Below are positions 7,789 through 58,181 of a stretch of 64,000 nucleotides of DNA, one piece after another. The notes under the pieces are model-generated. The model made no database searches. It saw only the letters and a list, made by a program, of their open reading frames with translations, and was not told the DNA's origin. A program made the translations under genes and the position numbers. Positions within the stretch are counted from its first letter, which is position 1, and the number at the start of each line of letters is the position of its first letter. The stretch covers positions 12,897 to 76,896 of the forward strand of contig LBTB01000004.1 in the NCBI GenBank assembly GCA_000989305.1. Direction: 5' to 3'. The stretch comes from Candidatus Shapirobacteria bacterium GW2011_GWF2_37_20 (GTDB taxonomy: Bacteria > Patescibacteriota > Microgenomatia > UBA12405).

Positions 7789-8604
7789 ATGAGGAATTGG
7801 AAAAGAGCTTGGCTAGTAACAACGCTAATTGTTTTTAGTGCTGGAATTGCTTGGATGTTTGAGGGAAATCAAAAACAAGTTAATATTGGTGGTGTTGTGT
7901 TACCAAAGCCAACTATTATTGAAAATAAATTAAAAATTGCAGTGATGGCGGATATTCACAACGACGAAGAGGAATTAAGAATAATGCTGAAGAAAGCCAA
8001 GGGCAACGGAGTTGAAATGGTGGTGCTGGCTGGTGATTTAACTAATAATGGGAAAACAAGTGAGCTGATTAAGATAAAGGAGGTTTTGGATGAATCAGGG
8101 GTGAAATATGCGGCTGTGCCTGGAAATCATGAGTATTATATTGACGAATTTGTAAAAATATTTGGAAAAAATTACCAGAGTATAAGATTGGGAGAAGTGA
8201 AGTTAATTTTGGTGGATAATAGCTACTGGAAAGGCTTGGATGAGGTGCATAAAAAATGGTTAGAGGGTGAGGTGGGTGAGTGTAGGGTGCTGATTTGTGT
8301 CGCAGTGATGCATAAGCCCTTAAATAATTTGTTTTCGAGCCATGTAATGGGTGAGAATAATGATAAGGCAACGGCAGAAGCATTATGGATGAGAGAATTA
8401 TTAATAACTTTCGGAGTCAGGCAAATTGAAGCGGGACATTTACATTATGCGAGCTCGTATGAGCTCGAAGGAATAAGAACGGATATAGTGGGGGCGGTTT
8501 CCAGGGAGAGAAATAATCAAAGTCCCAGGTATACTGAATTAATGATCGGTAGAGATTTAATAGAGAGAGTTGTGGTGGAGGAAACAGATGGTATTGGGAA
8601 TTGA
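7789..8604 (+). CDS. Calcineurin-like metallophosphoesterase with N-terminal TM helix
   Basis: DIHNDEE, GDLTNNG and GNHEY metallophosphatase motifs. Confidence 0.8.
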   Translation: MRNWKRAWLVTTLIVFSAGIAWMFEGNQKQVNIGGVVLPKPTIIENKLKIAVMADIHNDEEELRIMLKKAKGNGVEMVVLAGDLTNNGKTSELIKIKEVLDESGVKYAAVPGNHEYYIDEFVKIFGKNYQSIRLGEVKLILVDNSYWKGLDEVHKKWLEGEVGECRVLICVAVMHKPLNNLFSSHVMGENNDKATAEALWMRELLITFGVRQIEAGHLHYASSYELEGIRTDIVGAVSRERNNQSPRYTELMIGRDLIERVVVEETDGIGN

Positions 8605-9021
8605 TCCAGGGTTGGAAAATACAGGGTGGGGGGTAGTGGAGAATAATAAGTTGGTGGAATGTGGAGTAATTTTAACTACTAATAAGGATAAAAGTGAAGA
8701 TAGGTTGGAAAAAATTTTTGAAGAAATACAGAAAATTATTAAAAAATATAAAGTGGATGAGGTGGCAATGGAAAGTTTATTTTTTGCCAAAAATGTCAGA
8801 AGTGCGATGACGGTGGCGGAGGCGATAGGGGTGATAAACCAATTTTTGAATACACACCGCTACAGATAAAAATGGCTTTGGTTGGGTATGGGCGGGCGGA
8901 GAAAGAACAGGTGGAGTTGATGGTGAGGGATTGTTTGGGTCTTGAAGAACCAATAACACCCGGCCACGCCTCGGATGCGGTGGCAGCAGCTTTGACGCAT
9001 GAGTTTACAATGAGGCTATAA
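8588..9021 (+). CDS. ruvC: Holliday junction resolvase RuvC, interrupted by a -1 frame discontinuity near 8843-8850 (pseudogene, frameshift or indel)
   Basis: N-terminal part [17 protein letters not shown] reads in one frame up to 8869. The C-terminal part [22 protein letters not shown]...[11 protein letters not shown] continues in another frame up to 9021. The junction lies at a T5 run; a sixth T would restore one ORF. Confidence 0.7.
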
Positions 9022-9065
9022 CCAGTTGATTTGTAATATATATTATGGGTGAGATATAATTTGTT

Positions 9066-11988: not shown

Positions 11989-12246
11989 TTATTCCGCTTG
12001 GATACCAAGTAGCCAGAGAACAGCTTCCTTGCGGTAGCGACGATCACCGCGAGCATTGATGCGGATGGCGGGAAGTTTACCCCGTTTACCCCAACGCTTT
12101 ATCGTGAGTTTAGAAACACGTAGCAAATCGGCGACTTCGGCAACCGTTAAAAGGTCGGGAAGATTGTCGATACTGATACCATTAACTTTTTTTGGGGGGG
12201 ATTTTTGATTCACAAGCTTATCTTGTGTTAGGTTTTGATCATCCAT
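11989..12246 (-). CDS. Excisionase-family helix-turn-helix DNA-binding protein
   Basis: LLTVAEVADLLRVSKLTIKRW...G.LPAIRI..RGDRRY matches the excisionase/MerR-type HTH pattern. Local GC is clearly above the flanking genes. Confidence 0.7.
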   Translation of the reverse strand: MDDQNLTQDKLVNQKSPPKKVNGISIDNLPDLLTVAEVADLLRVSKLTIKRWGKRGKLPAIRINARGDRRYRKEAVLWLLGIQAE

Positions 12247-13370: not shown

Positions 13371-14423
13371 ATGAAAGCAGTAATAATATGCGGTGGGGTG
13401 GGTAGTAAAATGTGGCCGGAAAGCCGCGCCAGTTCACCAAAACAGTTTTTACCACTCATCGGCGAGAAATCACTATTCCAATTGAACTGGGAGGCGCTAA
13501 GACTGAAATTTTCCCCGGAAGAAATATTTTTGCAGACAAATGCGGTTCAGGCAGAAATTGCTAAGAAGCAAGTTTCGGAAATTTTGCCCGACAATGTTTT
13601 TATTGAACCGGAAATGAGAAATCAAGGGCCGGCGACCGGATTTGCAGCAGCATCTCTGATGAAAAAAGGTTTTGGAGATGAGGCGTTTATGCTGGTACAA
13701 GCAGATGTGATGAGAAAACCGGAAGAAAAATTTATAGAAATGTTGGAAGTGATGGGGACTTTAGCAGAATCAACAGAAAATTACATAACGGGTGGGATTG
13801 CTCCGGAAAATATTGTTAGAGGGGTTGATTATTTAGTAAAAGGAGAGTTGGTAAAAGAGGAAAAAGGAGTTAAGGTGTATCGGGTGGCGGATTATATTGA
13901 CAGAGCAGAGGAAGAGAAAATTAAACAGTATTTAGGTTCAGATAAGCTGTTAATTCACGCTAATCACACGACAATGACACCAAATAATTTAATGGAAATG
14001 TATAAAAAATACAGGATGGATTGGTATGAACCCCTGATGAGTATTGTTAATGGAGGAGATGTTCCAACTGAATATGCCAAGATGCCAAAGGCGGGAATCG
14101 AAGAGGTAACAAAACAAGTTTATACAAAAGGGGAGGCGCTGGTGGCCGAATTACCTTTTGAGTGGATTGATTTTGGGACTTGGGAGAGCCTGTCGAAGTA
14201 TCTGGTATCTAAAAATTTGTATTCTTCTGATAGTAAAACAATAGAGTTAGATAGTACTAATAATTTTGTGAGGGCAAACAAGACGGTGGCATTAATTGGA
14301 GTCAATGATTTGATAGTTATTGATAAAAACGATGCTCTTTTGATTTGTAAAAAGGAGATGACGGGGAAGGTGGGAGAGGTGGTAGATAAATTGAAAGCGG
14401 AAAATAAAGTGGAATTGTTGTAA
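13371..14423 (+). CDS. Sugar-phosphate nucleotidyltransferase (mannose-1-phosphate guanylyltransferase-like)
   Basis: N-terminal MKAVIICGGVGSKMWP nucleotidyltransferase motif. Length 350 aa. Confidence 0.7.
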   Translation: MKAVIICGGVGSKMWPESRASSPKQFLPLIGEKSLFQLNWEALRLKFSPEEIFLQTNAVQAEIAKKQVSEILPDNVFIEPEMRNQGPATGFAAASLMKKGFGDEAFMLVQADVMRKPEEKFIEMLEVMGTLAESTENYITGGIAPENIVRGVDYLVKGELVKEEKGVKVYRVADYIDRAEEEKIKQYLGSDKLLIHANHTTMTPNNLMEMYKKYRMDWYEPLMSIVNGGDVPTEYAKMPKAGIEEVTKQVYTKGEALVAELPFEWIDFGTWESLSKYLVSKNLYSSDSKTIELDSTNNFVRANKTVALIGVNDLIVIDKNDALLICKKEMTGKVGEVVDKLKAENKVELL

Positions 14424-14427
14424 AAAT

Positions 14428-14850
14428 ATGACAGACGAGAAGCTGGTAAAATTTAATCGTACTGGTGAGAATATTCCGGTAACTTTTATTGAAACAGCCG
14501 AAGTAACAAAGGGTGTCAGATGTGATGTTTATCGGTTTCTAGAGGATGAGACAAGAGATTTGGGAGTAATTTATGTTGAGCCAGGATGTAAAACGCCGTT
14601 GCAAAAAGTATTGGAAGGTGAAAAAACAATTGAGGGTTTTTATATGGGTAGAGGTATTTTGACGATTATAAAAATTAATGGAGAAAAAGAGACTTACGAA
14701 GTTGATGACAAATCGGGAAAAGACTTTTTTCAAGAAGTAAGGGTTGGGGAGACAATGCAGTGGGAGGCGACACCAGACTCAATTCTGATTGCCTATGAGG
14801 TGTGTTATCCACCATATAAGCCCGGAAGATATGAGGATTTAGTTGAATAG
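14428..14850 (+). CDS. Cupin-like small protein (possibly the separate PMI-type cupin partner of the upstream nucleotidyltransferase)
   Basis: Size and position fit; the family is bifunctional in other organisms. Weak motif support. Confidence 0.4.
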   Translation: MTDEKLVKFNRTGENIPVTFIETAEVTKGVRCDVYRFLEDETRDLGVIYVEPGCKTPLQKVLEGEKTIEGFYMGRGILTIIKINGEKETYEVDDKSGKDFFQEVRVGETMQWEATPDSILIAYEVCYPPYKPGRYEDLVE

Positions 14851-14900
14851 CCTAGATTATAAGTGCAAAATTTGATCGATTTTGTATCAATAAATACTAA

Positions 14901-14930
14901 TTGACAGACATTGAGAGGGGCGAGTACAAT
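14901..14930 (+). promoter_or_regulatory. Sigma70-like promoter TTGACA-18-TACAAT
   Basis: Perfect -35 hexamer and a near-consensus -10. Same extended motif TTGACAGACA as the promoter at 23453. Confidence 0.5.
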
Positions 14931-15055
14931 CGGGGCGATTATAAATTATCAGTCAAATCATATAACTGCTAAAATCTGCTCAGCAAGCAATATGAAATTA
15001 TTATAAATTATTATTCTGTCCACATGGATATTTTCAAAGCAGGTGGAACACAATT

Positions 15056-15385
15056 ATGTCAAATTGGTCTGAATTTAAAACGTATACAGATTTAAGTCTT
15101 ATTTTTATCTTAAATAGTATTGTAGGGGTATATCTGATTACATCAGGAGGAAAAGTTATTTATGTTGGAAAAGCCGATTACAGTCTCAAAAATAGATTGT
15201 CAGATCATTTAAAATTTTCAACAGAAAGTAATAAGGTGCTTGTTAATTATCTTATGGCTGGTGGGTGTAGATTTTCCTTATTAGAGGTTCCGCAAAAGAT
15301 TGATAGAGATAGAATCGAAAAGGAATTAATACAATTATATAGTCCTGTTTGCAATAAACAGAATAATCCATTTCCAGTTCGATAA
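15056..15385 (+). CDS. GIY-YIG nuclease-domain protein (single domain, 109 aa)
   Basis: GVYLITSGGKVIYVGKA ... RLSDHL matches the GIY-(10/11)-YIG...R...H pattern. Confidence 0.7.
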   Translation: MSNWSEFKTYTDLSLIFILNSIVGVYLITSGGKVIYVGKADYSLKNRLSDHLKFSTESNKVLVNYLMAGGCRFSLLEVPQKIDRDRIEKELIQLYSPVCNKQNNPFPVR

Positions 15386-15386
15386 C

Positions 15387-15415
15387 AAAAACCCCCTCGG
15401 AAGAGGGGGTTTAAA
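15387..15415. terminator. Bidirectional intrinsic terminator
   Basis: Hairpin CCCCCTC-GGAA-GAGGGGG flanked by A-run and T-run. Sits between the convergent GIY-YIG gene and rplL. Confidence 0.75.
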
Positions 15416-15431
15416 GTTTAAAATAAAAGAA

Positions 15432-15784
15432 TTATTTTAATTCAACGGTTGCACCAGCGGCTTCGAGTTTAGTCTTAGCTTCGGCAGCAGCGTCTTTTTT
15501 CATAGTGCTTTAGCTTCTTTCAAACCCAATTCTGGTTTGAATTCACGGACAGCTTTGATGACGGCGATTTTATTGGTGCCGGCGTTGGTAACGATGACAT
15601 CAAATTCGCTTTTTTCTTCAACAGCAGCAGCGGCAGGAGCACCGGCGGCAGCAGCGGCAGGAGCGGCGGACATGGCAACAGCTTTAACATCGAACTTTTC
15701 TTCTAGAGCTTTGACCAATTCGGAGAGTTCAAGCACCGAAAGTTGAGAGATTTGGTCGAGGATGGTTTCTAATTTTTTATCCAT
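15432..15784 (-). CDS. rplL: Ribosomal protein L7/L12, C-terminus interrupted by a frame discontinuity
   Basis: Main ORF 15500-15784 encodes NTD, Ala/Pro hinge and CTD up to GLKEAKAL, then hits TGA. The conserved end [22 protein letters not shown] is in another frame (15432-15503). About 13 aa of the CTD appear absent. Confidence 0.8.
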
Positions 15785-15822
15785 TTTTTTATTTAAATTT
15801 GTAAAAATTTATATATAAACTA

Positions 15823-16341
15823 TTAATTGGTCGCTTGTTTATCAGCCAGAGCTTTTAGGGTTAAAACTAATTGCTGTTGATTGAAACGCATGGCGTAAAC
15901 CAAACGTTGCAGAGGATTTTTAAGTCCCCCAATAAATTGAGCGATAAGAGTAGATTTGGAAGGCAGAGATAAAAACTTCTTTAATTCATCCAAAGAAAGT
16001 AGCTTTTTGTCATAAATTCCGAACTTAAAACTGGTTTTTTCCTTGTCTTTATTGACAGTGTCAATTTCTTTTAAGGGGGCGATTTCATCGGTATCACAAT
16101 AAACAACGGCGGTGGGGCCGGTTAGAGTTTCGGGCAAGTCGAGTTCCATTTTATTAAGGGCACGGGTGATGAGGGTATTTTTGATAACCTCAATAGAGCC
16201 ACCAGCATCTTTGACTTTGGCACGGAGAGTACCAGCATCACCAGCAGTGAGACCCTGGTATTGAATAAAAGCAGCAGATTTGGCTTCAGAGAGTCTTTTA
16301 ACGACTTCGTCAACTTTTTCAATTTTTTGTATTTTTGCCAT
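15823..16341 (-). CDS. rplJ: Ribosomal protein L10
   Basis: MAKIQKIEKVDEVV...GLTAGDAGTLR typical of L10. Start trimmed from the track ORF to the MAKIQ Met. Confidence 0.85.
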   Translation of the reverse strand: MAKIQKIEKVDEVVKRLSEAKSAAFIQYQGLTAGDAGTLRAKVKDAGGSIEVIKNTLITRALNKMELDLPETLTGPTAVVYCDTDEIAPLKEIDTVNKDKEKTSFKFGIYDKKLLSLDELKKFLSLPSKSTLIAQFIGGLKNPLQRLVYAMRFNQQQLVLTLKALADKQATN

Positions 16342-16450
16342 ATTTTTTGAATAAAAAATGCCTCGAAGACGAGGCACAATTAGAAAATCTAGCTGTTTCC
16401 TCGGCGGGACTTATTTGAGTGCCGGCTGTCTTCGGGATTACAGAGAGGAT
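16342..16450 (-). promoter_or_regulatory. Putative rplJ leader with a hairpin directly abutting the start codon
   Basis: GCCTCG-TCTT-CGAGGC hairpin followed by TTTTTTATT, 12 nt before the ATG. Resembles an L10(L12)4 autoregulatory leader or attenuator. Confidence 0.35.
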
Positions 16451-16585
16451 TATACACTAATTTAAGTGGTTGGCAAAGAGGGGAATGAGGGTTACACTTT
16501 GGGCATTGTATATTAAAGGTTATTTATATTTCTAATTACAGAAAAATTTCTGAAATGGGAAATATCGGTAACAAAAGGAGGAAAT

Positions 16586-16903
16586 ATGGCTAGGGAAGAG
16601 GTGGTTAGAGTTATCAAAGGTTTTTCTGGTAGTGTTGGCGAAAATGGTAAATGGAGAGGTAGTGGATTGGTGGCACCTTTAATTACCCGAGTGTATCTTG
16701 GGGCACCCGCTATTTTACTGAATTTAGATGAAGAAGAGTGTAAAAAAATGATTATTAGAGGAATAAGGCAGCTAACGGGGGTAGTTATACCAGAGAAGTA
16801 TGATCCGATTTTTTGGAATTCAGAAAAGGGAAAGGTGGTGGCGGAAAAATTAAATAGGAGATTGCCACAATTGCCCGAGGGAAGAAAAGTTGATCGGGCC
16901 TGA
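16586..16903 (+). CDS. Hypothetical protein
   Basis: ORF only. Confidence 0.4.
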   Translation: MAREEVVRVIKGFSGSVGENGKWRGSGLVAPLITRVYLGAPAILLNLDEEECKKMIIRGIRQLTGVVIPEKYDPIFWNSEKGKVVAEKLNRRLPQLPEGRKVDRA

Positions 16904-17039
16904 CAGGACTAAGAATGAGAAAATATTGGTGGGTACTTATATATTGCCGTTATTTGAGGTAGGATGGCTGTTTTGGTGATATAATCCTATGTCCTAAAAC
17001 CTTTTAGCGTTGACTGTAGAGGTTTAGGTAATATAAAAG

Positions 17040-17885
17040 TTGAGAAAACAACAAATGGTTACAAAAACATTGAAAAAGGCTGTTGAGGGCAGAGATGTAT
17101 TGGGTTTACGCTACGATAATAGTAAATATTGGAAGAAATATTATTCGGCAAAAGCTAATAATAGAGATTTTACTCGCGAGCACGAGTATGCGGTATTTTT
17201 GCAAGGGCTAATTAGTAAAAAAGCAAAGGTGCTTGATGTGGCGACCGGATATGGTTTTTTGCCAGTGGAAATGGCGAAACTGGGATTTAGTGTTGATTGT
17301 GTTGATAAGTATAAGGAAATGATTGAAGTGGCCAATAAATATATCTTGAAAAATAAGTTACAGCTCAAAATTTATAAGGCAGATGCGACTAAACTACCAA
17401 TGAGTGACAGGTCATATGATTTGGTAATGGCTCAATCAATTCTCGAGCATTTTTGTTTTGAGGAAATGACAAATAAACTGATTCCAGAGATCAAAAGGGT
17501 TACGAAGAATAAAGGTTTAATTTTAGTTCATGTTCCAATTAAGAGTGGGGTATGTGTGTTAAAAAAGTATTTCCGAAAATTCATTAAGAATGATTTGCCT
17601 AAGTGGGCAATCGATGATGACGGAGACGTTACACATAAAGTTTGGATGAGTGCGCCTGAATATATTAGTGAGCTTTCGAAGCAGGACGTAAACGTGGAAT
17701 TCATAAGATTTAATTTTATTAGAAGCAATGAAACTATTTCGTGGATGAGGGTTTTAAACAGAATATTCGTAATGTTTGGTATGAATAAATTTCACAAAAA
17801 AGAGAGTGTCTCTAGTTTTAAACTAAAGATATTGTCTTTTTTGGGGACGTCTGTTGTTTTGGTTTGTCGAAATAATAGTATATAA
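17040..17885 (+). CDS. Class I SAM-dependent methyltransferase
   Basis: VLDVATGYGF motif I and DLVMAQSILEHF post-II motif. Confidence 0.75.
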   Translation: MRKQQMVTKTLKKAVEGRDVLGLRYDNSKYWKKYYSAKANNRDFTREHEYAVFLQGLISKKAKVLDVATGYGFLPVEMAKLGFSVDCVDKYKEMIEVANKYILKNKLQLKIYKADATKLPMSDRSYDLVMAQSILEHFCFEEMTNKLIPEIKRVTKNKGLILVHVPIKSGVCVLKKYFRKFIKNDLPKWAIDDDGDVTHKVWMSAPEYISELSKQDVNVEFIRFNFIRSNETISWMRVLNRIFVMFGMNKFHKKESVSSFKLKILSFLGTSVVLVCRNNSI

Positions 17886-17892
17886 TCCGAGC

Positions 17893-18468
17893 ATGAAAGT
17901 TTTTTTTGTTGCATCTCCAAGGTCGGCAAACAAAGAACCGGGTTTATTTATAAAAATAAATAGTCTTTTGGGTAAAGAAGCAACACTTTTGGGAGATATG
18001 GTGCCGACATGGACTAAGGGAAATGTTTCAAATTTTTATAATGGGACCCACAAGGAAAGGGTGGATCATTTTAAAAAAACGGTGGAATATGTGAAAAAAG
18101 CCGATGCTGTTTTTGTTGAGTTATCGGAACACAGCATGTCGATGGGTTACATCGTGAATAAGGCTTTGGAAAACAGTAAGCCGGTGGTGGCCTTGTATAA
18201 AAAAGGTTTTGAACCATATTTTTTTAGTGGAATTGAAGATTCGAGGTTGTTGATTGTTGAATATACTGAAGAAAATATTGAAGAGACAATTCGGGAAGCT
18301 TTGAATAAAATAAAAGATTACAGTGACGTACGGTTTAATTTTTTTGTGTCACCAAAAATATTGAATTATTTAGATTGGATAGCCCAAAAGAGAATGATTC
18401 CCCGAAGTGTATTTTTGAGAAATTTAATTGAGAGAGAAATAAAAAAGGACAAAGAGTTTAAGGAGTAA
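17893..18468 (+). CDS. Hypothetical protein (Rossmann-like, possible C-terminal ribbon-helix-helix)
   Basis: ORF. Start trimmed to MKVFFVASPR. No confident family. Confidence 0.4.
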   Translation: MKVFFVASPRSANKEPGLFIKINSLLGKEATLLGDMVPTWTKGNVSNFYNGTHKERVDHFKKTVEYVKKADAVFVELSEHSMSMGYIVNKALENSKPVVALYKKGFEPYFFSGIEDSRLLIVEYTEENIEETIREALNKIKDYSDVRFNFFVSPKILNYLDWIAQKRMIPRSVFLRNLIEREIKKDKEFKE

Positions 18469-19663
18469 GGAGGTGTTGGTGTTCGGAGTGGAATTTGGTT
18501 TTAAGTTTTAGCCAGTAGGGTGATTGGCGACAAAGTTTTTTTGAATGGAGAGGGTTTTTGAGAAGCACCTTGATCAATTCTTCGAGAAAAATGGTATTTT
18601 GAGAACCCTTGATTAGGATGGTGGCGTTTTGAGGAAGATTATTTTTTAAGTAGTCGGCGGCTTGCCACCAATACATAAATTTTTTTGCTTTAGAACCAAA
18701 ATAACGACTGGTTTCAGGACCAACGCCAATAATTTGGTCGGCACTGTTGAGAGCAGTTTTATAGAGATTTTGATGAGACAGCTCTGAAGCGGCACCAAGT
18801 TCACGCATGTCACCCAAGACAACGATTCTGGGAGATTTAAAAGAGGCAAGAAAATTTAACATTTCAGTAGTGGCTAGGGGCGAAGAGTTGTAAGAACTAT
18901 CGATAATGCTTGAGTCATTGATGCCTTTTAAGATTGAAGAACGTCCCGGGGGAAGGTGGAAGTTGTTTTTTAGATTATTAATGGCGGTAGACGAGTCTAG
19001 CTTGAGAAGTTTGGCGACGGCAAGAGAAGCACCCAGTGAAATATCATAGATACCAGGGAGGAAGAAATTGGGAATGTCGATTTTAGTTGGTTTAATAGAG
19101 ACGATTTTTTTGTTTTTAGTGTACTTCTTAACAAAAAGATCAGAAGAATTGATGATGGCAGTGGTGGCAGAATTGGCCAGCTTAGCCTTTTCTTGAGCGA
19201 TCTCGTCAAGTGAAGAAAAATTTTCTAAATGGACTGGAGTGACATTGAGGAATATTCCGATATCTGGCTTGACGATAGATAATAGATAGGACATGTTTTT
19301 GGGGGATTTAGAGCTATCGATTCCCATTTCTAGGAGATAAATGTCGTAGGTTTTCCAGTTGGTGAGGAGTTTGAAGGGGGTAAGGAGGGCGATTGTTAGC
19401 CAAGATAAAAGAGAAAAATCCGGGTTCTTAAAACCAAGAATGTTGAGAGGAATACCGGATTCGGAATTGCTACCGTAATTGGTTTTAACTTTGAAATTTG
19501 GTTTTAGGGCGGCTTCGGTGGCCAAAAGAGTTGAGGTTTTGCCGGCGGAGCCGGTGATGCCGACGATAATTAGTTTTGGATTAAGTAATTTTACTTTGGC
19601 GAGCTGGAGACGAGCAAAGAAGCGAAGATAGTAGAGAAAAAGGAGGCTAAAATTTTTTTTCAC
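18458..19663 (-). CDS. Mur ligase family protein (MurF-like)
   Basis: IVGITGSAGKTST P-loop of Mur ligases. Divergent from ddl. Confidence 0.75.
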   Translation of the reverse strand: MKKNFSLLFLYYLRFFARLQLAKVKLLNPKLIIVGITGSAGKTSTLLATEAALKPNFKVKTNYGSNSESGIPLNILGFKNPDFSLLSWLTIALLTPFKLLTNWKTYDIYLLEMGIDSSKSPKNMSYLLSIVKPDIGIFLNVTPVHLENFSSLDEIAQEKAKLANSATTAIINSSDLFVKKYTKNKKIVSIKPTKIDIPNFFLPGIYDISLGASLAVAKLLKLDSSTAINNLKNNFHLPPGRSSILKGINDSSIIDSSYNSSPLATTEMLNFLASFKSPRIVVLGDMRELGAASELSHQNLYKTALNSADQIIGVGPETSRYFGSKAKKFMYWWQAADYLKNNLPQNATILIKGSQNTIFLEELIKVLLKNPLHSKKLCRQSPYWLKLKTKFHSEHQHLLTP

Positions 19664-19686
19664 TTAGCTATTATATAATGTAACTA

Positions 19687-20553
19687 ATGGCAAAGCTAAG
19701 AGTGGGAGTGTTGATGGGAGGGGAAAGTAGCGAAAGGGAAGTGTCGCTGATGACGGGGCTAGAGATGATGAAAAATTTGGATAGGGGAAAATATGAAATT
19801 GAGGCGATTGAATTGCCAAAAGATTTAAGAAAGATTGATGGGAAAATAGACGTGGCTTTAATAGCATTGCACGGTAAGGGCGGAGAGGATGGAGTGATTC
19901 AGGGATATTTGGAAAGTTTTGGAATTAAATATACCGGCTGTGGGGTGTTGGCGTCAGCCGTGGGAATGGATAAAAAAATATTTAGGGAAGTAATGATGGC
20001 CAACAAATTACCAATACCGAGATTGGTAACACGGGCTCCTTGTGTGGTAAAGCCCAGTAATGGCGGCTCGAGTGTGGGAGTGTCGATTGTGAAAAAGGAT
20101 GGTGAAATGGAAAACGCTATAGCTAAGGCTAGAAAATATGATGATGAAATAATAATTGAAGAATATTTGAAAGGGACAGAAGTGTCGTGTGGGATTTTGG
20201 GGAATGAAGTTTTGCCGGTAATTGAAATAGTGCCAAAAAATGAGTTTTTTGATTATGAATCAAAATATACTGAAAGCGGAGCAGAGGAGATTTGTCCGGC
20301 GCGGATTAGTAAAAAACTTAGTGACAGAGTACAAAAACTGTCAACAAAAGTTTTTAAGGTAATAAAAGGGAGGGGCTATGCCAGGATTGACTTTATTATA
20401 AAAAATAATAAGCCATATATTTTAGAAATAAATACCTTACCAGGAATGACAGCGGTGTCGTTGTTACCAAAAGAGGCGTTGGTAGTGGGAATAAGTTATT
20501 CCCAGCTTTTGGATAAAATAATTGAGTTGGCACTAAAAAAGCCCCTAGAATAG
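19687..20553 (+). CDS. ddl: D-alanine--D-alanine ligase
   Basis: N-terminal VGVLMGGESSEREVSL, followed by an ATP-grasp domain. Confidence 0.9.
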   Translation: MAKLRVGVLMGGESSEREVSLMTGLEMMKNLDRGKYEIEAIELPKDLRKIDGKIDVALIALHGKGGEDGVIQGYLESFGIKYTGCGVLASAVGMDKKIFREVMMANKLPIPRLVTRAPCVVKPSNGGSSVGVSIVKKDGEMENAIAKARKYDDEIIIEEYLKGTEVSCGILGNEVLPVIEIVPKNEFFDYESKYTESGAEEICPARISKKLSDRVQKLSTKVFKVIKGRGYARIDFIIKNNKPYILEINTLPGMTAVSLLPKEALVVGISYSQLLDKIIELALKKPLE

Positions 20554-20577
20554 GGGCTTTTTGAAATTATATCAGAA

Positions 20578-21339
20578 TTATTTCTCAACAAGAACTTTGA
20601 TACAAGGACCCATGGTGGCACAAAGAGCCAATTTTTTAATTTTTGGAACTTTGATAACCTTAATGAGTTGTTCAATGTTGGCTTGTAACTCTTTTTCGGG
20701 TTGAGAAACTTTGCCGACAACGAGGTGGACAACGGGAGCTTTTTTCTCAGTTTTGATCATAGTTTTGGCGACAGAAAGGCGTTTGACGGCTTCTTCTGGT
20801 TTGTCGGTTAAGGTGCCAGATTTGGGATTGGGCATTAAACCCTTGGGACCTAAAACACGGGCGAAGGGAAGGAGTTTTGGCATGGTGGTAGGAGTAGCAA
20901 TCAGAATATCGAAATTTACTTTTCCAGCTTTAATTTCGGCTAAAATAGCATCATTTAGTACGACAATTCTTTTAGTGCTAGTTTCTAAATGAGGAAAAAC
21001 GATTTCGCCGAGATTGCCGATGTCAATTACTGTCAGATGGGCTTCGACTTTACCGTCGAATTTGGAAATAGAAGTTTCCTTGACAAGTTTAATGGCGTCT
21101 TTAAGAGAATAAAGCTTAAGGATGTCAATTTTTTTCTTGACGGCTTTATATTTTTTGCCACGGACGCGGGCAGCTTTTTTAACGGTGGAAGTTTCCTCAA
21201 CGGGAGTTTGGGCAACTTTTTCAGTTTCCTTGACTTCAGTTTCGGCCTTGCGAGATTCAGTCTCAGTGACTACTTTCTCTTCCACAGCAAGTTCTTTTTT
21301 GGCCTTTTTAGCCTTGAGTTCTTGAGAGGTTTTGCTCAT
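20578..21339 (-). CDS. rplA: Ribosomal protein L1 with a K/E-rich N-terminal extension of about 55 aa
   Basis: Canonical L1 begins at RGKKYKAVKKK. The preceding 55 aa are a low-complexity KAKKAKKELAVEEK... segment. The true start is uncertain. Confidence 0.8.
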   Translation of the reverse strand: MSKTSQELKAKKAKKELAVEEKVVTETESRKAETEVKETEKVAQTPVEETSTVKKAARVRGKKYKAVKKKIDILKLYSLKDAIKLVKETSISKFDGKVEAHLTVIDIGNLGEIVFPHLETSTKRIVVLNDAILAEIKAGKVNFDILIATPTTMPKLLPFARVLGPKGLMPNPKSGTLTDKPEEAVKRLSVAKTMIKTEKKAPVVHLVVGKVSQPEKELQANIEQLIKVIKVPKIKKLALCATMGPCIKVLVEK

Positions 21340-21369
21340 TTATGAAAATTAAAATTATAAAAAAACTTT

Positions 21370-21795
21370 TTAGTCGACGATTTCAAAGCCCATGGATTTA
21401 GCAGTGCCGGCAACCATGTGTTTGGCGGCTTCCAAATCCTTGGTATTTAGATCTACCATTTTGTCAGCGGCAATTTTTTCGATTTGGGCTTGGGTGATTT
21501 TACCGATTTTTTCACGACCGGTAGTGGCACTACCTTTAGTAATTCCGGTGATTTTTTTGATCATGTCAGAAACTGGGGGTTTTTTGATGATGAAGTCGAA
21601 GGAACGATCCTCATAAATGGTGATAACGGAAGGGATGAGAGAACCTTTCATATCTTTAGTTCTTTCATTGAATTCGTTACAGAAATCCATGATTTTGATA
21701 CCCTGAGGGCCAAGAGCGGTACCAACTGGAGGAGCTGGGTTGGCGGCGCCGGCCTGGATAGCTAATTTGACGACAACTTTGATTTTTTTAGGCAT
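21370..21795 (-). CDS. rplK: Ribosomal protein L11
   Basis: KLAIQAGAANPAPPVGTALGPQGI motif. Confidence 0.95.
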   Translation of the reverse strand: MPKKIKVVVKLAIQAGAANPAPPVGTALGPQGIKIMDFCNEFNERTKDMKGSLIPSVITIYEDRSFDFIIKKPPVSDMIKKITGITKGSATTGREKIGKITQAQIEKIAADKMVDLNTKDLEAAKHMVAGTAKSMGFEIVD

Positions 21796-21801
21796 ATTTT
21801 T

Positions 21802-22398
21802 TTATAACTCTTTGGAAACTTGTAAAAAATCGAGTTCAACTGGAGTTTCACGTTCAAAAAAGGAAACAAGAACGCGAAGTTTACCCTTTTCTTGGTCGAT
21901 TGAATCAATGGTGCCAATGAAATCAGCAAAAGGACCATTGGTGATCTTGATGACATCGCCGATGGAATAGGGGGTTTGAAATTTAGGTTTATCTTCTTTA
22001 GTGGTTTTAACAATGTTGTCGACTTCAGCTTGAGAAATGGGAGTGGGTTTAGAGCCGATACCGACGAAACCGGTAACACCCTGAGTAGTGCGGACTGTGA
22101 CCCAGGAATCATCATTAACAACCATTTGGATTAAGACATAGCCAGGGAAAGTTTTTTCTTGGGTTTTGACTTTGGTGCCGCGACGAATAATCATTTTGGA
22201 CTGAATGGGAACTATGGCTTGAAAGATTTGATCTTCGAGGCCCATGGTTTTGATACGGATTTTTAGGGCGTCAATAACCTTGTATTCGTGGCCAGAGTAA
22301 GTGTTGATAACATACCAGGCCGCATCAATGGGTGGGGTGTTTGTAGAAAGAGTAAATTGAAACTCCTTTTGATTGGTTTTGGTGGAATTATTTGGCAT
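21802..22398 (-). CDS. nusG: Transcription antiterminator NusG
   Basis: WYVINTYSGHE NGN domain and a C-terminal KOW GDVIKITNGPF. Confidence 0.9.
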   Translation of the reverse strand: MPNNSTKTNQKEFQFTLSTNTPPIDAAWYVINTYSGHEYKVIDALKIRIKTMGLEDQIFQAIVPIQSKMIIRRGTKVKTQEKTFPGYVLIQMVVNDDSWVTVRTTQGVTGFVGIGSKPTPISQAEVDNIVKTTKEDKPKFQTPYSIGDVIKITNGPFADFIGTIDSIDQEKGKLRVLVSFFERETPVELDFLQVSKEL

Positions 22399-53166: not shown

Positions 53167-54290
53167 ATGGTAAAAAAGAAAATCTTGGTGATGACAGATC
53201 ACATGCCCTGGGGTCATCGGTCAATCGCCAGAGCTATCTATGGTTTTTTAAAAACTAAAGAGAAAGAAGAAAATTTTGAAGTTTATTACGCTGAAGTGAA
53301 GTCCGAGATGGGAATTTCAAATGATATATATCAATTCAGTTATCGATATTTACCTTTGTCGAGCCGGATTGGAAGATGGATGTCTTATTTGCCTCAAATC
53401 AGAAAAGTAATCGAAGAGTTATCGTTTACTAATTTGTCGGCACCTAAAAAAGTGGTTCAAAAAATAAAGCCAGACTTGGTGATTTCAACCTATTGGTTTC
53501 ATTCCCATTCTTTGGCCGGGTGGAAGGACAGGGGAGATGTAAATTTCAAATTATGGACGGTGGTGGCAGATCCGTGGACGGTGTTGCCGGTGTCATATAA
53601 TTCAAAAATCGATATGCATCTGGTTTATGATCAGATGGGGGTTGATGTTGGGATGAAAGAATGTGGTATCCCAAAAAATAAAATATTAGAAACAGGCTGG
53701 TGGACAAGGCCGGAGATGTTTGGAAAGTTTGATAGAAAAGAAGCCAGAAAAAAACTAGGTTTTAGTGATGACAGACAGGTGGTATTTGTTGGGGGCGGGA
53801 GTTTGGGAACGAATTCTTTAACGAAACTTTTACCAGCTCTAATGTTAATTAAGGGTAAGGTTGGCTTTATTTTTAATACCGGGACGGATAAATTGGCCTA
53901 CAATCTAGTCGAGCAATATACAAGATTGTATAAAAAATTAAACAAGCAGGGAAATGTAATCATTAAAAACCTGGGTTGGATTGAGAACATGGGAGAAGTA
54001 TTAGCCGGGGTAGATATTGTTTTTGGAAAAGCAGGTCCAAATTTTTTGTTTGATGGGCAATTACCCATATTGGAGGGCAAGAAGACGGAAACATAGACTT
54101 GATTAAAAAGAAGGGTTTAGGTTGGGTTAAAGAAAAGGGAACAGAGGCGGCTGATTTTTTATTAGCTTATCTTGAGGACCCAAAAAGATATCAGGATAAA
54201 TTTAAGAAAAATATTGAGACTGAAGCAAGAAAAAACGAAAAGAGTATGGGGATAATACTTGGGGAAATAAAGAGAGAAATGAGAATTTGA
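53167..54290 (+). CDS. GT28/MGDG-synthase (UgtP)-like glycosyltransferase, copy A; two frames joined by a -1 junction near 54064-54069
   Basis: Frame 1 (53167-54096) ends ...FGKAGPNFLFDGQLPI-LEGKKTET*. The conserved continuation GGQEDGNIDLIKKKGLGWVKEK... is in the -1 frame (track ORF 54099-54290). GQE(E/D)GN is the expected next motif of this family. Confidence 0.7.
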
Positions 54291-54307
54291 GTATTATAGA
54301 ATAGGGT

Positions 54308-55428
54308 GTGACTAAAAAGAAAATCTTGGTAATGACAGATCATATGCCCTGGGGTCACCGGTCAATAGCTAGAGCGATTTATGGGTTTTTAAAAACCAAA
54401 GAGAAAGAAGAAAATTTTGAAGTTTATTACGCGGAAGTAAGAGCAAAATTAGGATTAATTCATGAGATGTATATGCTTAGTTATCGGTATTTACCAGTAT
54501 CCAATAAGTTATCCAGATGGATATCGTACTCGCCGGGTTTGAGAAAATTAATTGAAAAAATGTCTCAGGGGAATGTGGTGGCGCCAAGGAAAATAGTTGA
54601 AAAAATTAAACCCGATTTGGTGATTTCAGCCTATTGGTTTCATTCCCATTCTTTGGCCAGGTGGCGTGATAAAGAAAAACAGAAATTTAAATTATGGACG
54701 GCTGTTAGTGACCCGTGGACTATTTTACCGATAGCATATAACTCTAAAATTGATTTGCATTTGGTTTATGACCGGAAAGGGGTGTATTTAGGAATGAAAG
54801 AATGTGGTTTAAAAAGGAATCAGATTTTAATAACAGGCTGGTGGACAAGACAGGAGATGTTTGGAAAGTTTGATAGAAAAGAAGCCAGAAAAAAACTAGG
54901 TTTTAACGATGGTAGGCCGGTGGTATTTTTTGGCGGAGGAAGTATGGGAACTTATTCGTTGGTAAGGTTGTTGCCGGCCTTGATGTTAATTAAAGACAAG
55001 GTAGGTCTAGTATTTAATACTGGGAAAGATAAAAAATCATATGACTTGGTGGAGCGGTACGTAAAGTCATATAAACGATTAAATAAAAAAGGAAACTTAA
55101 TCATTAAAAACCTGGGTTGGATTGAGAACATGGGAGAAGTATTAGCCGGGGTAGATATTGTTTTTGGAAAAGCAGGTCCAAATTTTTTGTTTGATGGGCA
55201 ATTACCCATAATGGGGGACAGGAGGATGGTAATATCAGATTGATAAAGAAGAAGGGTTTGGGATGGGTGAAGGAAAAAAGGGGAGAAGCGGTGAAATTTT
55301 TGCGGGACTATTTAAAAAGACCCAAACGGTATCAGAAAAAGTTTGAAAAAAGTATTGAGAATGAGGCGAAAAGAAACGAGAAAAGTATGGAGATAATCTC
55401 AAAAAGGGTAAAAGAAGAATTGAAGTAA
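54308..55428 (+). CDS. GT28/MGDG-synthase (UgtP)-like glycosyltransferase, copy B; same -1 junction near 55205-55210
   Basis: Tandem paralogue of copy A. Frame 1 ends ...GQLPI-MGDRRMVISD*. The -1 frame continues GGQEDGNIRLIKKKGLGWVKEK... (track ORF 55240-55428). Confidence 0.7.
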
Positions 55429-57305: not shown

Positions 57306-58181
57306 TCATTTTTTTGTGATTATTGAATAATATTTTTTTATTTCTGTCCACTCGGTTTTGTTTTTTCCCTCAACTTGGACCATAACTGGCACCAGTTTTG
57401 ATTTATTTTGATCCAAAATTCCCGAAAATATTTTCATTTTTAGAATTTGATGGTTGAGATTTTCCACAAAGGTCCAGGCAATCGGTGAGGGATTGAGAGC
57501 GCGGATAAAACGTTCAATTTTTTGAATATCCCAAGTCCAATTTATTTTTGCCCCATCTTTAGTTATTTTTGGAAAGTAACTTTTTTGAGTATGGTTTTGA
57601 ATCTTGAGAACGGTAGGATTTTGAATATATGTTTTTAAAACGCTTTCTAAATTATCGGAAGCTAGTTGAAATGCTTTTTGATAAAAGGAGTCAGCCGTTT
57701 CACTTTGGATGATGTCAAAAGGGACTTGAGTGATGATGGGACCGTGGTCGGGAAGGGGATCAATTTGAAAAAAAGTGACGCTACTTTTTGTTTCGCCATT
57801 AATAATTTGCCAAGGACCGGGGGTGGCACCGCGGTATTTGGGTAAGGTTGAGGGATGAATGTTAATTATTTTTTTGGGAAAGATGTTAATTGTTTCTTCA
57901 TCAAAAAAAGGAGGTCCAAAAGCCAAGCAAAGAGCCAAGTCAGCTTTTAGGTCGCGAAGTTTGTTTTTGACTTCCGGAGTAAATTCTTCAATTTGAAGAA
58001 GTGGGAGATTGTTGTCCTGGCAATATTTTGCGACATGATTGGGGGTGATTTTTTGATCACGACCAAAGGCTTTATCTATTTTGGTGACAACGGAAATTAA
58101 TTCGAAATCAGAAATTTTTGAAAGTTTTTTTAAAACCGGTAAAGAATAAATTGAAGCGCCAAAGAAAACAATTTTGGTCAT
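57306..58181 (-). CDS. fmt: Methionyl-tRNA formyltransferase
   Basis: IVFFG...N-terminal formyltransferase domain, HPSLLPKYRGA-like motif (IHPSTLPKYRGATP), and a C-terminal domain. Confidence 0.85.
   Translation of the reverse strand: MTKIVFFGASIYSLPVLKKLSKISDFELISVVTKIDKAFGRDQKITPNHVAKYCQDNNLPLLQIEEFTPEVKNKLRDLKADLALCLAFGPPFFDEETINIFPKKIINIHPSTLPKYRGATPGPWQIINGETKSSVTFFQIDPLPDHGPIITQVPFDIIQSETADSFYQKAFQLASDNLESVLKTYIQNPTVLKIQNHTQKSYFPKITKDGAKINWTWDIQKIERFIRALNPSPIAWTFVENLNHQILKMKIFSGILDQNKSKLVPVMVQVEGKNKTEWTEIKKYYSIITKK

Follow-up and report, generated by a model that had tools for sequence, protein, structure and literature searches.

The interruption of rplL, which encodes the ribosomal protein L7/L12, in the record of Candidatus Shapirobacteria bacterium GW2011_GWF2_37_20 is most probably (at about 0.9) a local error of the short-read metagenome assembly behind that record; the feature is best classed as a database artefact and not as real. 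Two results argue for this reading: an intact but otherwise identical gene is present in further assemblies of this bacterium, and the 64,000-nucleotide stretch of DNA analysed here (the window) contains four private deletions and no private substitutions. The deletion in rplL is private to this record, its flanks are identical to the intact alleles, and other private frame-breaking deletions lie alongside it.

Two reading frames of rplL

The truncated rplL ORF lies on the minus strand at 15500..15784 and was delimited by translation of the window and by Pfam search; it encodes 94 aa, the last of which are GLKEAKAL, followed by TGA. The remainder of the gene (15432..15503, minus strand), corresponding to residues 105-127 of the intact protein and then TAA, is out of frame: in the -1 frame, ATG (15503..15501) AAA AAA GAC and the codons that follow, up to TAA (15434..15432), encode 23 residues that represent the conserved L7/L12 tail. 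The ATG of the tail and the TGA of the 94-aa ORF overlap as ATGA. The DNA of the tail is 100% identical to that of the intact sibling assemblies. At the protein level, the 94-aa product is identical to KKQ31496.1 of GW2011_GWF2_37_20 and was found on one 84.5-kb contig only.

In the 94-aa ORF, the N-terminal dimerisation domain and the Ala/Pro hinge are present, and the C-terminal domain (CTD) is represented by its first half. PF16320 (N-terminal dimerisation and L10 binding) is matched over profile positions 1-46 of 48 (E = 5.2e-18), while the match to PF00542 (C-terminal, factor binding) extends only from position 1 to position 33 of 67; a complete in-frame PF00542 domain is lacking from the window ORF and present in the 127-aa protein of the siblings. 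Even when the sequences from both frames are joined, the alignment of the window sequence to the Pfam C-terminal domain is interrupted by an internal gap. These results bear out the first-pass annotation in two respects, namely, that rplL is interrupted with its C-terminal domain halved (the 94-aa ORF and the PF00542 match to positions 1-33 of 67) and that the conserved end is encoded out of frame from an ATG overlapping the stop (the -1 frame, 15503..15432). Like other bL12 genes and proteins (Escherichia coli rplL, PDB 1CTF and 1RQU; Thermotoga maritima, 1DD3), the window gene follows rplJ directly and encodes the N-terminal domain, an Ala/Pro-rich hinge, and the initial half of the CTD; unlike them, its CTD ends after Pfam position 33 of 67, with 12 residues unencoded and the last 23 out of frame.

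The position of the gene next to rplJ is that of a bL12 gene. An intact rplJ (L10; 15823..16377, minus strand; PF00466, E = 1.9e-19), 100% identical to that of the siblings, lies 38 nt upstream on the same strand, which places rplL directly downstream of rplJ. Downstream of rplL, a terminator-like hairpin, AAACCCCCTCTTCCGAGGGGGTTT, followed by a T run (15389..15412, minus strand), precedes a convergent 109-aa ORF with a GIY-YIG nuclease domain (15056..15385, plus strand; PF01541, E = 1e-6), and this hairpin terminator is common to both genes. Leader or regulatory RNAs near rplJL were not found; an Rfam scan of the window gave tRNAs only.

Two features of the surrounding region were also noted. 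The usual secE-nusG-rplK-rplA-rplJ-rplL cluster is split (window 15823..22398), rplA (20578..21339) and rplJ being separated by approximately 4 kb in which small ORFs accompany genes for a D-Ala-D-Ala ligase, a Mur ligase, and a methyltransferase; nor is rplL followed by rpoB and rpoC, and the order is the same in all sibling assemblies. In one JGI contig (Ga0209416_1000529), the segment corresponding to 14417..15404, with the GIY-YIG ORF and a 140-aa ORF, has given way to 415 nt that encode a 127-aa ORF of unrelated sequence and with no Pfam match; this replacement may be a variable cassette or may reflect a chimeric contig.

Intact L7/L12 in other assemblies of the population

An intact L7/L12 of 127 aa was found in at least 10 other assemblies of the same groundwater population, which were matched to the window at the population level and not to the GWF2 sample itself. 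Where the first-pass annotation had looked to a single canonical rplL ORF of about 120 aa as the mark of a corrected sequence, the 127-aa protein of these assemblies is such an ORF. This protein was the best match in the protein search and is located on 23 contigs from NCBI, ENA, JGI, and Logan assemblies; in GenBank it is represented by KKQ50849.1 and KKQ64852.1 (one of them from GW2011_GWE1_38_10), as well as by HBP51061.1. These contigs share with the window the gene order Mur ligase, methyltransferase, L10, L12, convergent GIY-YIG ORF, 140-aa ORF, and nucleotidyltransferase. The intact protein includes the stretch DMVDACPADLGTMK and matches solved bL12 chains over residues 6-127 (E = 6e-27).

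The continuity of the gene extends to more distant relatives. Among the 120 matches listed, all but one are 123-152 aa long, the exception being the 94-aa entry of the window's own record. The 10 to 11 closest relatives that were aligned, 87-98% identical to the joined window sequence, are all continuous through the site and contain the segment, with minor variation at one position. An exact-product look-up, in an index that does not include the window's own record, returned no other assembly carrying the 94-aa L12 product, and the same was true of the exact 309-aa product of a glycosyltransferase gene described below. A 32-mer spanning the junction had no match in JGI metagenome contigs or GTDB species genomes, collections that barely sample this population; this negative result is uninformative, since control scans of the same collections for the intact allele returned only 1 and 2 loci, none of which came from this population.

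The 31-nt gap

The difference between the window and the intact allele is a single gap. Six of the intact assemblies were included in a base-by-base alignment of rplL (MAFFT; window 15400..15830; the deletion was also extracted by an anchor-based comparison), and every aligned base of the gene and its flanks matches, apart from the absence of 31 nt, GATATGGTTGATGCTTGTCCCGCCGATCTTG (gene strand), at the junction 15507..15508 on the minus strand. The junction on the gene strand reads ...GAAGCTAAAG|CACTATGAAAAAAG.... The missing segment corresponds to 10 codons plus 1 base, and the 12 residues DMVDACPADLGT are therefore encoded in neither ORF. The first-pass annotation had described a loss of about 13 residues between the CTD helices relative to E. 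coli; the missing segment is confirmed, while its size, relative to the organism's own intact allele, is 31 nt and 12 residues. The protein alignment identifies the ATG that overlaps the rplL stop as the native Met-105 codon of the intact protein; it is not a new start signal. Over the full 6.4-kb loci around rplL, there are 0 mismatches between the window and either of two intact contigs (L001 and L002), and assemblies with intact rplL match the window without a mismatch over 19.2 kb (L013) and approximately 12 kb (L002/L030).

The boundary of the deletion shows microhomology of 1 nt (G) only; there is no second copy within the window of any flank of the junction of 14 nt or longer, and the deleted stretch contains no significant hairpin (z = +0.9). 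On these grounds, repeat-mediated and hairpin-mediated deletion were both rejected. A homopolymer indel in the A6 run was likewise rejected, as that run comes only after the stop codon and one gap of 31 nt is all that the alignment contains.

Further private deletions in the window and in related records

Independent assemblies were retrieved via neighboring proteins, approximately 61 of the 64 kb of the window were compared, and all differences were listed. In these approximately 61 kb, the window has 0 private substitutions and 4 private deletions (25, 31, 25, and 25 nt), all of them out of frame and inside coding sequence, which corresponds to roughly one short frame-breaking deletion per 16 kb of the window. 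With regard to substitutions, the agreement is complete for assemblies from several sources: there are 0 mismatches to the window over 19.2 kb of a Logan contig (L013), 14.3 kb of a SPIRE-named ENA contig (L021), 14.7 kb of a JGI contig (L018), and several kb each of three contigs from NCBI, JGI, and ENA (L027, L028, and L030).

Besides the gap in rplL, one deletion affects ruvC (gene region 8570..9046, plus strand), in which 25 nt, AAGGTAGCGGCAAAGAATTTGGGAA, are absent at the junction 8835..8836; the ORF in the window encodes 99 aa (8570..8869), versus 152 aa in five sibling assemblies. The other two affect a pair of tandem MGDG_synth/Glyco_tran_28_C paralogs (53167..55243) that are approximately 77% identical overall. 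The first of these MGDG_synth-like glycosyltransferase genes lacks the 25-mer TTGTGGCTTCTCAAAAACCATTTGT at 54055..54056 (plus strand) and encodes 309 aa, versus 374-382 aa in the siblings; the second lacks the same 25-mer at 55196..55197 (plus strand) and encodes 311 aa, versus 369-381 aa. Both deletions fall in a 138-nt exact repeat that is common to the two genes in the intact assemblies. A single faulty collapsed graph node traversed twice would give exactly these paired deletions, while a biological route to them would need either two independent identical mutations or one mutation followed by gene conversion. Contigs of several other assemblies end at this repeat.

Short deletions of this kind were also seen in two sibling genomes that carry the GW2011 name prefix (GWE1_38_10 and LBUO01), each of which has private deletions of its own. 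The GWE1_38_10 contig (LBTX01000001.1) lacks 20 nt at window position 53975. In LBUO01 (GCA_000992605.1), one contig (L022) has two deletions within the paralog repeat, of 103 nt (54056) and 8 nt (55197), and another (L027) has three, of 86, approximately 77, and 61 nt, by which murB, ruvC, and ruvA are split. The MEGAHIT-style and SPIRE-named ENA contigs (L002, L014, L016, L021, L029, and L030), each compared with the window only, showed no private short deletions, and none were present in the window-identical Logan contigs (L013 and L020). A JGI contig (L028) and a Logan contig (L023) have small indels of their own. The sibling deletions suggest a problem common to these GW2011 records and not a single accident.

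Two additional irregularities were observed among the compared assemblies. In fmt (57306..58181), a 10-nt segment at window position 57542 is present in the window and in the SPIRE-named ENA contig L021 and absent from a GW2011 contig (L022) and from a Logan contig of an unrelated run (L023), its absence shortening Fmt from 291 to 243 aa; this difference may reflect genuine polymorphism, or else an assembly problem that recurs in a T-rich stretch. The genome GCA_003508875.1 (L015/L026; DODT01000014.1) contains NN-marked patches in which 5-26 nt are duplicated or missing, for example, at window positions 12046, 12670, 41637, and 57089. These patches match the class of scaffolding errors described as "Ns inserted despite overlap" (PMC7111523).

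A probable assembly error and its alternatives

Under the assembly-error reading, the consensus would have dropped 31 bases, removing 10 codons and shifting the frame; as a consequence of this loss, gene prediction on the record yields an L7/L12 of 94 aa (KKQ31496.1). In the organism itself, L7/L12 is most likely an ordinary 127-aa protein, as in every other assembly of the population. We infer that no reads stand behind the junction and that the error arose in the assembler or during curation. The GW2011 genomes are reportedly IDBA-UD assemblies, most of them without manual curation, an account that is attributed to Brown and colleagues in 2015 (Brown et al. 2015). Local assembly errors, which are defined by the lack of perfect support from even a single read, are a prominent feature of assemblies made with IDBA-UD; a 1.13-Mb genome from the Candidate Phyla Radiation (CPR) contained 13 of them (Chen et al. 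2020, Genome Res, PMC7111523). The gap in rplL resembles the published cases in being a short wrong consensus that is found in one assembly only, breaks a gene, and recurs elsewhere in the genome and in GW2011 siblings (PMC7111523); it differs from them in that they are defined by read support, whereas the rplL gap is judged from the comparison of assemblies. Two further marks of such errors are present: the gap is a private difference with flanks identical to independent assemblies, and the same assembly contains other private deletions in the window, unaccompanied by substitutions. The location of the rplL deletion outside any repeat, with microhomology of only 1 nt, counts against an artefact.

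The alternative that survives best, although we consider it unlikely, is a true 31-bp deletion allele that was present in the GWF2 sample and was chosen as the consensus; its carrier cells would be defective or dying. The deletion is, after all, present in the deposited record and annotated there as a 94-aa protein, and the aquifer is home to at least two haplotypes that are nearly identical (a few substitutions per 40 kb), which indicates some real microdiversity. The haplotype carrying the deletion, however, shows zero substitutions relative to the intact assemblies, three further gene-breaking deletions occur in the same 64 kb (two of them the loss of one and the same 25-mer from the two copies of a repeat), and no other assembly has the 94-aa product. 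Four frame-breaking deletions against no substitutions is an unnatural mutation spectrum, and the C-terminal domain of L7/L12 is required for the recruitment of translation factors and the stimulation of their GTPase activity; both count against a genuine allele. It is not plausible that a natural genotype would combine freedom from substitutions with four deletions of 25-31 nt that all break the reading frame within 64 kb, one of them hitting an essential ribosomal gene. That the deletion is a true allele dominant in the GWF2 sample is very improbable. If it were true, a CPR bacterium would be persisting with an L7/L12 stalk protein whose factor-binding domain is missing by half, and the final 23 residues might be made as a separate peptide via coupling at ATGA.

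We give almost no credence to deliberate expression of the gene in two pieces, either by a programmed -1 frameshift, yielding a fused and shortened L7/L12, or by translational coupling at ATGA, yielding a two-piece protein. What recommends this idea is the overlap of ATG and TGA, followed directly by the dnaX-like heptamer A AAA AAG, which in rplL is in the correct 0-frame phase, as at dnaX-type -1 frameshift sites. Unlike at those sites, the heptamer lies after the 0-frame stop and is not conserved as a recoding site, its counterpart in relatives consisting of Met-Lys-Lys-Asp codons. Because the heptamer is past the 0-frame TGA, ribosomes terminate before they reach it; a frameshift is possible only between the -1-frame TAA and the 0-frame TGA, that is, within AGCACTATG, which contains no slippery sequence. 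The ATG and the A run are ordinary in-frame Met-Lys-Lys codons of the intact gene, the split arrangement occurs in 0 of the 10 to 11 closest aligned relatives (87-98% identical to the joined window sequence), and a fused product would still be without the 12 residues DMVDACPADLGT. Rescue of rplL by frameshifting or coupling was rejected on the geometry of the sequence together with the absence of conservation in relatives.

Less credible still is the converse polarity, in which the intact allele carries an insertion (e.g., a small mobile element) and the window represents the ancestral empty site. The length difference speaks for it, and nothing more. Against it, 31 nt is not divisible by three, solved bL12 structures are matched by residues 6-127 of the intact 127-aa protein, the joined sequence of the window leaves the internal gap in the Pfam C-terminal domain noted above, and the segment is present in all aligned relatives down to 87% identity (with lengths of 123-152 aa in all but one of the 120 listed matches); this polarity is excluded. 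An alternative genetic code (UGA read as Gly, code 25) was rejected, as the window has long ORFs under table 11 and the tail produced by TGA read-through is unconserved.

Implications

An assembly error in rplL has no biological importance in itself, since the organism almost certainly has a normal L7/L12. The significance that the first-pass annotation implied for a broken rplL is accordingly unsupported, given an intact allele in at least 10 assemblies and private deletions without substitutions. The value of the finding lies in data quality: the truncated KKQ31496.1 stands in public databases, presumably together with truncated ruvC and glycosyltransferase products. The GW2011_GWF2_37_20 record and its GW2011 siblings hold multiple short gene-breaking deletions, which serves as a warning, and claims of gene loss, pseudogenes, or odd ribosomal proteins in the CPR that derive from these records should be checked against other assemblies or reads.
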